Assembly: GCA_032718475.1 (NCBI GenBank)
Contig: JAUCBJ010001551.1
Location: 62,001-126,000, forward strand
Direction of reading: 5' to 3'
Length of the DNA: 64,000 nt
Source of the DNA: Nemertoderma westbladi
Lineage: Eukaryota > Animalia > Xenacoelomorpha
Position numbers and translations under genes: made by a program. Of the stretch, positions 40,201 to 53,058 are shown piece by piece (position 1 is the first letter of the stretch; every line of letters begins with the position of its first letter). The notes below the pieces were generated by a model. It was not told the origin of the DNA and ran no database searches. It saw nothing but the letters and a program-made list of their open reading frames with translations.

Positions 40201-43200
40201 AACTGGATATGTGTTATCTGGACCATTAGTTGGAACTTTTAGTGAAACTGAAAACATTCCAGAAATATCTTGTTACCATGGTAACTGGAGTTTATTAAAG
40301 TCTAAATCATTCAAGTCTAAATTCAATACTCTATTTGTAGCAAAATAATGTAATAAATATAAATTTGGGGTTTTGCAACTCATCTGTAAGGTCCATATAC
40401 AATCCATTCGAGGTTAATTACACAATCCAATTACCATAGCAACAAGACTATTAAACACATGTTAAAATTTCTAAAATGATAATTTAAAACACAAGTTAAT
40501 AGTATTATGACTTGGGACCAAGACCTACCCCCATTATATGACTTATTCTGCATCCGAATTACATTGTTCTATTTTTCAGTTTCCATGACAACCACTGCAA
40601 ACAGATGCATTTTGATAGAAAATCGGTAATTTGGACATAAACTACAATATTTTCTGAAACTTGGTATGTGTTATCTGAACCACAATCTGGACTGAATCTT
40701 TTTTCAAAGGTAAAACCAACAGTTCCAGAGAATTCTAGTTTCCATGGGAATATAAGTTATTTATTGGCAAATGCTACTAAACTAGGCTAAGCAACAAACC
40801 AAATTGTGGCCCTTTGTTAAATTTTCCTTAGCTTCGTGGTTGCATTTCCTTTAGGAAATGCCTTTCTAGTACTATATTTCCCAAAATATAATTTAATAAT
40901 GTTTATTAATATAATAGGTAATTAAAATATTTTGTTATAATAATAATAATTAAAAAAATAATTTACTTATTTTTTTATTTTAAATTTATTGTATTTTTTA
41001 TGGGAAGCACCCATAGCGTGCTCTATTAAAGGCCTTGCAAACGTGCAGCCTTCAATATTTATGGAGGCTGGATTATAACCGCTAGCGTACTGCTTTACTG
41101 TGTGTGTGCAGGCATGGGGAGAGTTCTATAAATTTTCATTTGCCGCAATTTGGTCAATGGACGTAATTGAAGTCTCCTCGTTAAGGAAGATACTAGATTT
41201 TATGGTAGATAGTGTTTTAGGTAGGTTTGGCTAGTAATTTCAACACTGGTTCCGATATCCTACTTCCTTCTATAAATATTTTATAGTAGCTAGTTTTTAT
41301 TTCCATTTGTATAGAAAATGTTCCAGAACATGTTAGCTATTAATTTTTAAAAAAATTATGTTCTAGAATAAATATTTTTGTTTAGAAAAAAATCTGGATT
41401 TGATTTAAAACGCATGGAATTGTTATAAAACGTGTTTAAAATCAATAAAAAATATTGTGAAAAAATTTAATTGAAAAAAAAATTTTGAAATTTTTTGTTT
41501 ATTGATTTTAAACACGTTTTCGAACGATTCCATGCGTTTTAAATCGAATCCAGATTTTTTCTAAAAAATGTTCTAGAACAAAAAATATTTGTTCTAGAAC
41601 ATAATTTTTTAAAAATGAATAGCTAACATAGCTAACCATAAAATTTAGTATCTTGCTTAAAACGAGGAGGCTTCAATTACGTCCATTAACCAAATTGCAA
41701 CAAATGAAAATTTATAAAGCTCTCCCCATGCCTGCACAAACACAGTACAGCAGTACGCTGCCGGTTATAATCCAGCCTCCATAAATTATGAAGGCTGCAC
41801 GCTTACAAGGCCTTTAATAGAGTACACTATGGAAGCACCCTAGATATGGGAGGCCTTAGGCCACGGTCTAGCTGGCCTAAGCCTAAATCCGGCTATGTCC
41901 ATCTCCCGACTGCTGATGTGCACCCCCCCCCCCCCCCCCCCCCTCCACATCCAGGATGTTATTTAACAACGAAGCCCCAGCGCTGCAGTTTGTTTTACTT
42001 TATTTGTTACTCAGGCCATCTTTATAATCCCCAGTTTGTATTACTTTATTTGTTACCCAGGCCATCTTTATGATCCCCAGTTTGTATTACTTTATTTGTT
42101 ACCCAGGCCATCTTTATAATCCCCAGTTTGTATTACTTTATTTGTTACCCAGGCCATCTTTATGATCCCCAGTTTGTATTACTTTATTTGTTACTCAGGC
42201 CATCTTTATGATCCCCAGTTTTTATTACTTTATTTGTTACCCAGGCCATCTTTATGATCCCTAGTTTGTATTACTTTATTTGTTACCCAGGCCATCTTTA
42301 TGATCCCCAGTTTGTATTACTTTATTTGTTACTCAGGCCATCTTTATGATCCCCAGTTTGTATTACTTTATTTTTACCCAGGCCATCTTTATGATCCCCA
42401 GTTTGTATTACTTTATTTGTTACTCAGGCCATCTTTATGATCCCCAGTTTGTATTACTTTATTTTTACCCAGGCCATCTTTATGATCCCCAGTTTGTATT
42501 ACTTTATTTGTTACTCAGGCCATCTTTATGATCCCCAGTTTGTATTACTTTATTTTTACCCAGGCCATCTTTATGATCCCCAGTTTGTATTACTTTATTT
42601 GTTACCCAGGCCATCTTTATGATCCCCAGTTTGTATTACTTTATTTGTTACTCAGGCCATCTTTATGATCCCCAGTTTGTATTACTTTATTTGTTACTCA
42701 GGCCATCTTTATGATCCCCAGTTTGTATTACTTTATTTGTTACCCAGGCCATCTTTATGATCCCCAGTTTGTATTACTTTATTTGTTACCCAGGCCATCT
42801 TTATGATCCCCAGTTTGTATTACTTTATTTGTTACTCAGGCCATCTTTATGATCCCCAGTTTGTATTACTTTATTTGTTACTCAGGCCATCTTTATGATC
42901 CCCAGTTTGTATTACTTTATTTGTTACCCAGGCCATCTTTATGATCCCCAGTTTGTATTACTTTATTTGTTACTCAGGCCATCTTTATGATCCCCAGTTT
43001 GTATTACTTTATTTGTTACCCAGGCCATTTTTATGATACCCAGTTTGTATTACTTTATTTTTACCCAGGCCATCTTTATGATCCCCAGTTTGTATTACTT
43101 TATTTGTTACCCAGGCCATCTTTATGATCCCCAGTTTGTATTACTTTATTTGTTACTCAGGCCATCTTTATGATCCCCAGTTTGTATTACTTTATTTGTT

Positions 43201-52200: not shown

Positions 52201-53058
52201 ACTTTTGGTTTTTATTTAGGTGACAGTGGTACAGTTGTTGTAATGGTATATTATTACTTTTGGTTTTTATTTAGGTGACAGTGGTACAGTTGTAATGGTA
52301 TATTATTACTTTTGGTTTTTATTTAGGTGACAGTGGTACAGTTGTTGTAATGGTATATTATTAGTTTTGGTTTTTATTTAGGTGACAGTGGTACATTTGT
52401 TGTAATGGTATATTATTACTTTTGGTTTTTATTTAGGTGACAGTGGTACAGTTGTAATGGTATATTATTACTTTTGGTTTTTATTTAGGTGACAGTGGTA
52501 CAGTTGTTGTAATGGTATATTATTACTTTTGGTTTTTATTTAGGTGACAGTGGTACAGTTGTTGTAATGGTATATTATTACTTTTGGTTTTTATTTAGGT
52601 GACAGTGGTACAGTTGTAATGGTATATTATTACTTTTGGTTTTTATTTAGGTGACAGTGGTACAGTTGTTGTAGTAGAAGGATCCACTGAATATTCTGGC
52701 AATGCAGCCGTCCACGAATCCAATATGGGAATGGATCCGGAAGATTTTCAAAAAGTTACTGAAAGTGATTTCAACTTCGTAAGTCTCAAATAATTAAAAT
52801 TAAATTCAAATTATTAAATTTGATAACAAGAATACGTATACTCTGAGACTGAGAACTATATTATACTTAGGAAATATCTTTATTGATTTCTAGATAAAGA
52901 ATCTTTCAGTGGAAGCTGTTAAACGACGAATCTTGTCTCTGGATGGCCACATGGAGGCTGAGATTGAGAAACTGCGGCGCAGATATCAGGCTAAACGTCA
53001 ACCTATTTTAGACGCCATCAGCGCGAAATTATATCGGCCCTACGAAATAAAAACTTAG
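28165..53058 (+). CDS. STK3: Hippo / MST1/2 (STK3/STK4) Ser/Thr kinase, spliced; first (ATG) exon not identified
   Basis: Exons 28165-28245, 28994-29237, 38567-38731, 38986-39153, 46072-46209, 47092-47196, 48369-48510, 51302-51400, 52651-52778, 52894-53058; all GT-AG with consistent phases. The translation follows MST1/2 from [18 protein letters not shown] through [31 protein letters not shown] and GTMVIN to the C-terminal SARAH domain. Confidence 0.95.
28328..28871. repeat. 30-bp intronic minisatellite (~18 copies)
   Basis: Unit AACAGTCGGGCCTACCGGTACTACTGTCTT. Confidence 0.97.
28994..29237 (+). CDS. STK3: Hippo/MST exon B (AYGAVYK...VMRLRKKA)
   Basis: ttttttaccag acceptor, GCT|gttagt donor; [22 protein letters not shown]. 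Confidence 0.95.
29259..38501. repeat. 27-bp T/G-rich intronic satellite (~340 copies)
   Basis: Unit TTAATTG(T/A)TATTGGTTACTGGTAT(ATG/AGG/GGG/ATT); fills almost the entire 9.3-kb intron. Confidence 0.97.
38567..38731 (+). CDS. STK3: Hippo/MST exon C (LSEEEI...[11 protein letters not shown]...DFGVAGHLA)
   Basis: 165 nt, ttttag acceptor, GCA|gtttag donor; catalytic loop and DFG. Confidence 0.95.
38986..39153 (+). CDS. STK3: Hippo/MST exon D ([19 protein letters not shown]...HPMR)
   Basis: 168 nt, tccag acceptor, CGA|gtgagt donor; activation loop. Confidence 0.95.
39384..39567. repeat. 16-bp GC-rich minisatellite (~11 copies)
   Basis: Unit GGCTGGGAGCCCCTCC. Confidence 0.92.
39598..40870 (+). 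mobile_element. Helentron-associated (DINE-1/HINE-like) non-autonomous element
   Basis: subTIRs CCACGAAGCTAAGGAAAAT (39598-39616) / ATTTTCCTTAGCTTCGTGG (40821-40839); partial inverted copy at 39639-39650; 3' hairpin GCATTTCC-TTTA-GGAAATGC (40842-40861) then CTAGT; internal ~460-bp diverged direct repeat with several GTT(A/G)CCATGG(C/T)AAC-like motifs. Confidence 0.7.
41012..41831. mobile_element. Foldback-like MITE with long TIRs and 8-bp TSD (P or hAT superfamily)
   Basis: CATAG...CTATG termini, ~200-bp outer and ~130-bp inner inverted arms, perfect TSD GAAGCACC (41004-41011, 41832-41839). Confidence 0.85.
41986..46092 (+). repeat. 46-bp tandem array (~89 copies) of the exon E 3' splice junction
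   Basis: Unit = TTGTATTACTTTATTTGTTAC(C/T)CAG + GCCATCTTTATGATCCCCAGT; the last copy runs into the real exon ([11 protein letters not shown]). Confidence 0.97.
46072..46209 (+). CDS. STK3: Hippo/MST exon E ([11 protein letters not shown]...STATMLLQ)
   Basis: 138 nt, CAG|gtattt donor; continues HPMR|AIFMIP as in MST1/2. Confidence 0.95.
47092..47196 (+). CDS. STK3: Hippo/MST exon F (HPFVRNAK...[11 protein letters not shown])
   Basis: 105 nt, ttcacag acceptor, TCG|gtgagt donor. Confidence 0.9.
47163..47999 (+). repeat. 41-bp tandem array (~20 copies) of the exon F 5' splice junction
   Basis: Unit = TAAAGAAACATTATCTAACCAATCAGACGAATCG + GTGAGTA; the first copy is the real exon end. Confidence 0.95.
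48105..48330. repeat. GTATGGTGT/ATGAGT simple-repeat tract
   Basis: Short-period G/T-rich repeat ending ~40 bp before the exon G acceptor. Confidence 0.9.
48369..48510 (+). CDS. STK3: Hippo/MST exon G (DDEPDGTMR...[20 protein letters not shown])
   Basis: 142 nt; conserved LGTMVIN and acidic-TMK linker motifs; DEPD|G lies where MST1 has its caspase site. Confidence 0.9.
48690..51215 (+). pseudogene. Degenerate intronic LINE (RT) relic
   Basis: Fragments [56 protein letters not shown] with many frameshifts; ends in a (TAAA)n tail at ~51189-51215. Confidence 0.88.
50103..50330 (-). mobile_element. Short 3'-end fragment of another retroelement inserted in the LINE relic
   Basis: Interrupts the RT between the QG..LSP and YADD regions; (AAT)n tail on the - strand next to the palindrome CGAGCCGAGGCTCG. 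Right boundary approximate. Confidence 0.5.
51302..51400 (+). CDS. STK3: Hippo/MST exon H ([19 protein letters not shown]...KNSS)
   Basis: 99 nt, phase 1-1, ttgtag acceptor, CAG|gtttat donor; PYMEQF lies where MST1 has PSFLEYF. Confidence 0.8.
51585..52673 (+). repeat. 55-bp tandem array (~20 copies) of the exon I 3' splice junction
   Basis: Unit = ATGGTATATTATTACTTTTGGTTTTTATTTAG + GTGACAGTGGTACAGTTGTTGTA; the last copy continues into the exon. Confidence 0.95.
52651..52778 (+). CDS. STK3: Hippo/MST exon I ([10 protein letters not shown]...ESDFNF)
   Basis: 128 nt, TTC|gtaagt donor; DFNF matches the DYEF immediately before SARAH. Confidence 0.85.
52894..53058 (+). CDS. STK3: Hippo/MST last exon, SARAH domain
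   Basis: [45 protein letters not shown]...TAG. Confidence 0.95.
   Translation: MKNLSVEAVKRRILSLDGHMEAEIEKLRRRYQAKRQPILDAISAKLYRPYEIKT

Follow-up and report, generated by a model that had tools for sequence, protein, structure and literature searches.

Tandem repeats whose units run across an exon-intron border were reportedly first described by Canestro et al. in 2002 for the amphioxus gene Adh3. In this study, we compare with such repeats three arrays in a Hippo gene of Nemertoderma westbladi, located in a 64-kb window (the whole stretch of 64,000 nucleotides that was analysed, positions 62,001 to 126,000 of the forward strand of contig JAUCBJ010001551.1). Mirages are amphioxus tandem repeats that span exon-intron borders (PMC3087553, PMC3902484). 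As described in the cited part of PMC3087553, they lie at 5' and 3' borders, have units of 10-160 bp, leave splicing undisturbed and have been proposed as a route to intron gain. Cases given there are the globins BflGb6 and BflGb9; troponin C and PGBD5, the latter with two repeats, are given in the cited part of PMC3902484.

Junction repeats are also described from human genes. The cited section of PMC1557585 presents variable number tandem repeats (VNTRs) in intervening sequence (IVS) 7 of F7 (37 bp, 5-9 copies), IVS13 of CBS (15-20 copies), IFI 6-16 (25 pseudo-sites), lamin B2 (100 bp, 10-15 copies) and PDGF (81 bp, 16-18 copies). According to this section, choice of the first donor was shown experimentally for the F7 minisatellite, where identical downstream pseudo-donors are silent. 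The authentic site alone is used in F7, lamin B2 and PDGF, whereas in CBS and 6-16 the two nearest pseudo-sites are used as well. A literature search that covered few subscription papers found no survey of such repeats across a whole genome.

Here we show that the three Hippo arrays are mirage minisatellites, a known repeat type to which a further animal lineage is added. The original prediction had taken them for a feature class not yet described; the cited passages on amphioxus mirages (PMC3087553, PMC3902484) and on the five human cases (PMC1557585) contradict this. With a probability of roughly 0.77, we read the arrays as splice-junction-spanning minisatellites that were born by chance slippage and expanded neutrally in an expressed Hippo gene, whose RNA is spliced at the site attached to the whole exon.

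Three arrays across splice junctions of Hippo

The gene model comprises 10 exons (28165..53058, forward strand) with GT-AG at 9/9 introns and a single open frame of 477 aa. In Pfam, the product shows a STE20-type kinase domain (PF00069) and a C-terminal Mst1_SARAH domain (PF11629, E 1.4e-20), and its best solved-structure matches are STK3/STK4. Because of the kinase and SARAH domains and these closest solved relatives, we identify the gene as Hippo. The first Hippo exon was not located in the window, where an open reading frame (ORF) of 128 aa at 27076-27462 has no Pfam match. Exon numbers in the text count this exon, so that exon 8 is 48369-48510. Arrays were called with Tandem Repeats Finder on the 64-kb window. 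Their copy numbers are those of the assembly, since none of the listed short-read run contigs spans an array.

28165-28245, 28994-29237, 38567-38731, 38986-39153, 46072-46209, forward strand: first five of the 10 Hippo/STK3-4 exons found, from the gene model and spliced contigs
47092-47196, 48369-48510, 51302-51400, 52651-52778, 52894-53058, forward strand: exons six to ten of the 10 found, from the same sources
41986..46092, forward strand: array 1, 46 bp x 89.1 copies, 96% matches, across the acceptor of exon 46072-46209; unit of 26 nt intron and 20 nt exon
47162..47999, forward strand: array 2, 41 bp x 20.4 copies, 89% matches, across donor 47196/47197; unit of 34 nt exon and 7 nt intron
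51585..52673, forward strand: array 3, 55 bp x 20.0 copies, 94% matches, across acceptor 52650/52651; unit of 32 nt intron and 20-23 nt exon

The three units are mutually unrelated in sequence, and each array repeats its unit head to tail across the exon-intron boundary (3/3). Unit lengths of 41, 46 and 52-55 bp are of minisatellite size and fall within the 10-160 bp described for mirages in the cited part of PMC3087553. Many but not all units keep the splice dinucleotide: the acceptor AG of array 1 in 88/89 copies, the donor GT of array 2 in 16/20 (4/20 have decayed to AT) and the acceptor AG of array 3 in 20/20, where every unit carries AG|GT. The arrays also show concerted evolution in the interior, with near-identical units, and divergent units at the edges; at -17 the working copy of array 1 carries a change found in no other copy, and array 2 contains a repeated block of 8 units next to unique first units. 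Near-identical interiors, divergent edges and the 8-unit block indicate ordinary minisatellite turnover.

Further likeness to the amphioxus mirages, as far as the cited passages describe them, lies in the presence at both donors and acceptors, the overlapping unit sizes (10-72 bp in Adh3), the AG/GT in most units, the unaffected normal splicing and the possibility of more than one repeat per gene (60- and 108-bp repeats in PGBD5). The Hippo locus differs in that its host is not a lancelet, copies number 20-89 as compared to 3-6 in BflGb6, and three arrays occur in one gene. Array 2 (41 bp x 20) has the same design as the human VNTRs, where the donor lies in the first unit, with a series of identical pseudo-donors behind it. 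The human cases listed in the cited section are all arrays at donors; arrays 1 and 3 instead span acceptors, and of their sites the last is used. Less work has been done on acceptor arrays than on the human donor arrays, and the Hippo arrays, a dense and clean example of a known repeat type, would have their value as a test bed.

Splice-site use in assembled RNA

Contigs from 4/6 public runs, X1 (study P1), X2 (P2), X4 (P3) and X5 (P2), were compared on two stretches. X1 and X2 cover introns and contain head-to-tail units of all three arrays at a depth well above that of the flanks. Read depth was not taken as copy number, since the flanks themselves differ in X1, with a depth of 5-7 on one stretch as compared to 31-34 on the second. 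X4 and X5 cover exons and skip introns, including those of 882 and 115 nt, at GT..AG; for this reason we treat both runs, labelled 'DNA?', as RNA. At the three junctions the following was found.

46072..46209, forward strand: Hippo exon AIFMIP...LLQ, preceded by its working acceptor AG (46070-46071); in X4 and X5, exon 5 continues at 46072
47092..47196, forward strand: Hippo exon HPFVRN...SDES, followed at 47197 by its working donor GTGAGT; X4 and X5 continue from 47196 to exon 8 at 48369
52651..52778, forward strand: Hippo exon DSGTVVV...FNF, working acceptor the last of 20; in X4 and X5, exon 9 continues at 52651

Offsets within the X4 and X5 contigs (484 and 612 nt) equal those of the model to the base, and therefore the dominant RNA is free of decoy sequence. 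The spliced contigs of both runs, which come from two studies, contain no decoy sequence at any of the three junctions. As in mirages, splicing in these dominant contigs takes place at the authentic site attached to the exon; even a single exon behind 88 decoy acceptors is spliced correctly in the dominant RNA. The contigs support that this Hippo gene is expressed and its coding sequence intact. One 76-bp contig of X5 (depth 2.5) lies in array 1 and could stem from pre-mRNA, DNA carry-over or decoy use. Missing cover of array units in X4 was not counted against rare decoy use. A leak such as that reported for CBS and 6-16 in PMC1557585 would not be visible in contigs. A processed retrocopy as source of the joined form in X4 and X5 was considered and is unlikely, the joined form being absent from X1 and X2.

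That assembly produced the arrays artificially, or that the gene is a silent copy, is hardly credible. Such a view could draw on the fact that whole arrays are spanned by no listed contig, so that copy numbers rest on the assembly, and on the possibility that X1 is the source of the assembly. However, the head-to-tail units occur in X1 as well as X2, from two studies, and X2 is likely to represent another individual or haplotype than the assembly because it differs at 53030; a silent copy is opposed by the spliced contigs of X4 and X5. At position 53030, T>C (Leu to Ser, just past the SARAH domain) is found in X2, X4 and X5, but not in X1.

Most of what the original prediction had read from the letters withstood these comparisons. 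Arrays that straddle functional splice sites are confirmed by the repeat coordinates, the GT-AG model and the junctions in X4 and X5; the exon-proximal copy works and leaves the coding sequence intact, as seen at all three junctions and in the 477-aa open frame; the arrays are present in sequencing runs and the gene is expressed. Stops upon read-through of decoys were likewise borne out. Simulated splicing to every decoy gave a premature stop, with longest products of 319, 359 and 417 aa for arrays 1, 2 and 3 as compared to 477 aa. A claim that no unit length is a multiple of 3 holds for 46, 41 and 55 and fails in array 3, whose units measure 52, 54 or 55 nt, so that part of the units, and part of the distances over several units, are divisible by 3; these too run into stops.

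These stops invite the view that the arrays are a selected regulatory system tuning the Hippo dose by decoy splicing coupled to nonsense-mediated decay (NMD). The cited section of PMC1557585, by which the human CBS and 6-16 arrays use the nearest two pseudo-donors, lends it some weight. Yet stops are expected on read-through of an AT-rich intron, the three units are unrelated and one array is decaying, and neither X4 nor X5 holds a decoy-joined contig. We regard such a system, which the original prediction had offered, as very improbable. Nothing supports it. Proximal use is expected from geometry and the unit lengths from chance: three lengths that are not multiples of three have P = 0.30, and their use as a signal was rejected. 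Nor does the exon-proximal position of the working copy carry information, because a duplication crossing a junction always leaves the whole exon on an end copy.

Local sequence offers little to tell decoys from working sites in two arrays. Twelve decoy donors of array 2 share the 9-mer of the working donor, and nine decoy acceptors of array 3 are identical to the working site over -32..+20; in array 3, downstream context must therefore decide. On the reading of neutral minisatellites, the array 2 decoys would stay silent because splicing takes whichever donor comes first behind the exon, as in the human F7 minisatellite. Among the acceptors, the decoys would be outcompeted because the last acceptor alone has a complete exon, with its donor, to pair with (exon definition), and products that leaked from decoys would be cleared by NMD. 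With nine decoys that match the working site letter for letter along more than 50 nt, array 3 isolates the effects of exon definition and NMD.

A different view holds that decoys are used and then repaired or filtered, with the AG|GT of array 3 as recursive (ratchet) sites and array 1 growing only as an amplified variant that lacks a branch-point motif. YTRAY is a branch-point-like motif. Within -30..-10 it occurs in 1/89 array 1 copies, the working copy alone, and just 4/78 single substitutions would create it. Donors were scored against the U1 consensus. Joining exon 9 to any array 3 acceptor rebuilds CAG|GTGACA, which matches this consensus at 6-7/9 positions as compared to 2-7/9 for the gene's own donors; mis-splices in array 3 could therefore be respliced. 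However, a donor is rebuilt at AG|GT in array 3 only, and in neither array 1 nor array 2. The working acceptor of array 3 lacks YTRAY, as do 2/9 acceptors of the gene within 45 nt. Moreover, edge units often diverge from homogenised interiors, as stated in the cited part of PMC3087553. We consider repair of used decoys improbable, while the branch motif of array 1 and the AG|GT of array 3 could be leads beyond neutrality, to judge from sequence. The closest comparison to the latter is human UBC, whose dual-specific or recursive AG|GT arrays are covered in the cited part of PMC10809524. Array 3 shares with them tandem AG|GT and a pyrimidine-rich upstream tract, but UBC units are coding and spliced stochastically in frame, whereas those of array 3, known from sequence, are intronic decoys with stops.

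Among the remaining donors of the gene, GCA|GTTTAG at 38732-38737 matches the consensus at merely 2/9 positions. A contig of X4 reaches 578 nt upstream of 46072 across this donor, as compared to 577 nt in the model, which suggests that weak donors are tolerated in the Hippo gene. A 17-bp x 5 array at 53070-53159 starts 12 bp after the Hippo stop codon. Both runs of spliced type, X4 and X5, contain it, which places it in the 3' untranslated region.

Birth and growth of the arrays

Around 42 kb of the 64-kb window are tandem array. Seven strong arrays lie in the Hippo gene, 4/7 of them purely intronic, including the following.

29259..38501, forward strand: 27-bp x 340 array without exon part, which takes up 9243/9329 bp of the intron, with 21 bp between it and the donor
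28328..28871, forward strand: 30-bp x 18 array (Tandem Repeats Finder)
48100..48328, forward strand: 7/15-bp array with its end some 40 bp short of an acceptor

With arrays collapsed to one unit, the introns measure 113, 115, 161, 216, 234, 254, 882, 2710 and 2791 bp, 6/9 being 113-254 bp. The long ones (882, 2710 and 2791 bp) contain dispersed or mobile repeats, as seen from high read depth, inverted arms and a weak RVT_1 match. Because the introns are so short, a random duplication of 41-55 bp often crosses a border. The junction arrays have the three longest units (41, 46 and 55 bp as compared to 15, 16, 27 and 30 bp), as a geometric model predicts.

Birth of the arrays would thus be a matter of slippage duplications of 41-55 bp that by chance overlapped the ends of short introns, in a genome very rich in repeats. 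Array 1 has CAGT microhomology at both ends and array 2 an imperfect homology of about 16 nt, and hence slippage or microhomology repair is the likely birth of these two; at the ends of array 3, no microhomology was found. Growth may have proceeded by unequal exchange or multi-unit slippage, seen in the 8-unit block of array 2. Tolerance would come with the geometry, in that one end copy must retain the complete exon when a duplication crosses a junction.

Tandem duplication as a route of intron gain was considered as well and rejected, since in all three cases the opposite end of the intron is non-repeat sequence at least 184 bp from the array. The Rogers model of intron gain through tandem duplication of an AG|GT proto-splice site, as cited in the part of PMC3087553 used here, has the duplication across a splice signal in common with Hippo. 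It differs in that the Hippo arrays enlarge existing introns and make no new one. The intron hosting array 3 (51401-52650) is flanked on both sides by AG|GT. It is not known to have a counterpart in human STK4 and may be specific to the lineage. For arrays 1 and 2, we take the introns to match human STK4 intron positions.

Several points weigh against neutral birth and growth. All runs are assembled contigs, from which rare isoforms drop out, and low-level decoy use may escape. Site choice in arrays 2 and 3 is not explained by local sequence, because decoys are identical to the working site. The acceptor AG is intact in 88/89 and 20/20 copies of arrays 1 and 3, yet most unit columns are also near-invariant (per-column variation of array 1 was computed on the 81/89 regularly spaced units). 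Finally, the probability of at least 3 of 7 arrays at junctions is 0.002-0.008 with the collapsed introns as they are, and 0.014-0.049 with introns capped at 900 bp. It rises to 0.06-0.22 once the long introns are reduced to the short class, and is 0.08-0.22 with the long introns capped at 260 bp. These null models were chosen post hoc, and the gene was picked because of its pattern.

The low values can be taken to mean that in this lineage arrays are preferentially born, or preferentially survive, at splice junctions, for example by transcription- or splicing-coupled DNA damage or by exon-border repair, the arrays themselves being functionless. That 3/18 splice sites of one gene are affected speaks for it, as does the end of several purely intronic arrays at 21-82 bp from a splice site. 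On the other hand, the gene was chosen for showing the pattern, the uncapped value is lost when introns filled with mobile elements are reduced, and introns of 110-250 bp leave no place far from an exon. We hold such a bias to be rather unlikely. Of the two forms of a lineage-wide duplication process in the original prediction, duplications tolerated at junctions fit the data, while duplications biased to junctions rest on one gene with P of 0.002-0.22 depending on the null model. A bias of this kind, if shown genome-wide, would bear on intron expansion and on duplication models of intron gain.

A broader proposal, unlikely but with somewhat more than an outside chance, is that minisatellites of the lineage arise or persist preferentially at junctions and that splicing filters their growth to dozens of copies, through the missing branch point in array 1, the first-come donor in array 2 and AG|GT resplicing in array 3. 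If true, the gene would be a natural experiment in which the spliceosome picks the last of 89 near-identical acceptors.

Other features of the window

A decayed insertion resembling a long interspersed nuclear element occupies 48690-51210 (forward strand, approximate boundaries) in the intron after exon 48369-48510. It has a weak RVT_1 match that stays under the Pfam cut-off (E 7e-5), and its (AAAT)n tail occupies 51188-51210. Nested non-autonomous elements at 39195-41897, upstream of array 1, carry matching inverted GCCGGATTTAGG ends near 39198 and 41890, inverted arms of 172 bp (41011-41182/41661-41832), a diverged duplication of 457 bp and a 16-bp array.

An array of 24 kb at 622-24873 has a 50-bp unit in 483 copies. 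A pyrimidine tract is followed by CAG|GTAAT in 62 copies or CAC|GTAAT in 351, so that the strong AG|GT motif occurs in a minority of copies, on the Hippo strand. At 25195-26200, a 63-bp x 14 array follows a stretch with motifs that we take to be tRNA-like A and B boxes, and it may sit in a short interspersed nuclear element.

An intronless ORF at 59884-60984 encodes a p38 MAPK of 366 aa with a GC-rich 3' half. Identity is at most 69% among the 120 matches listed and 63% to Branchiostoma p38. In a tree of 21 of the 120 listed proteins it forms a long unresolved branch. The gene may be a retrocopy or may have shed its introns. Two arrays of one 68-bp unit lie at 57444-57914 and 58473-58648, with single partial copies near 56470 and 59350.

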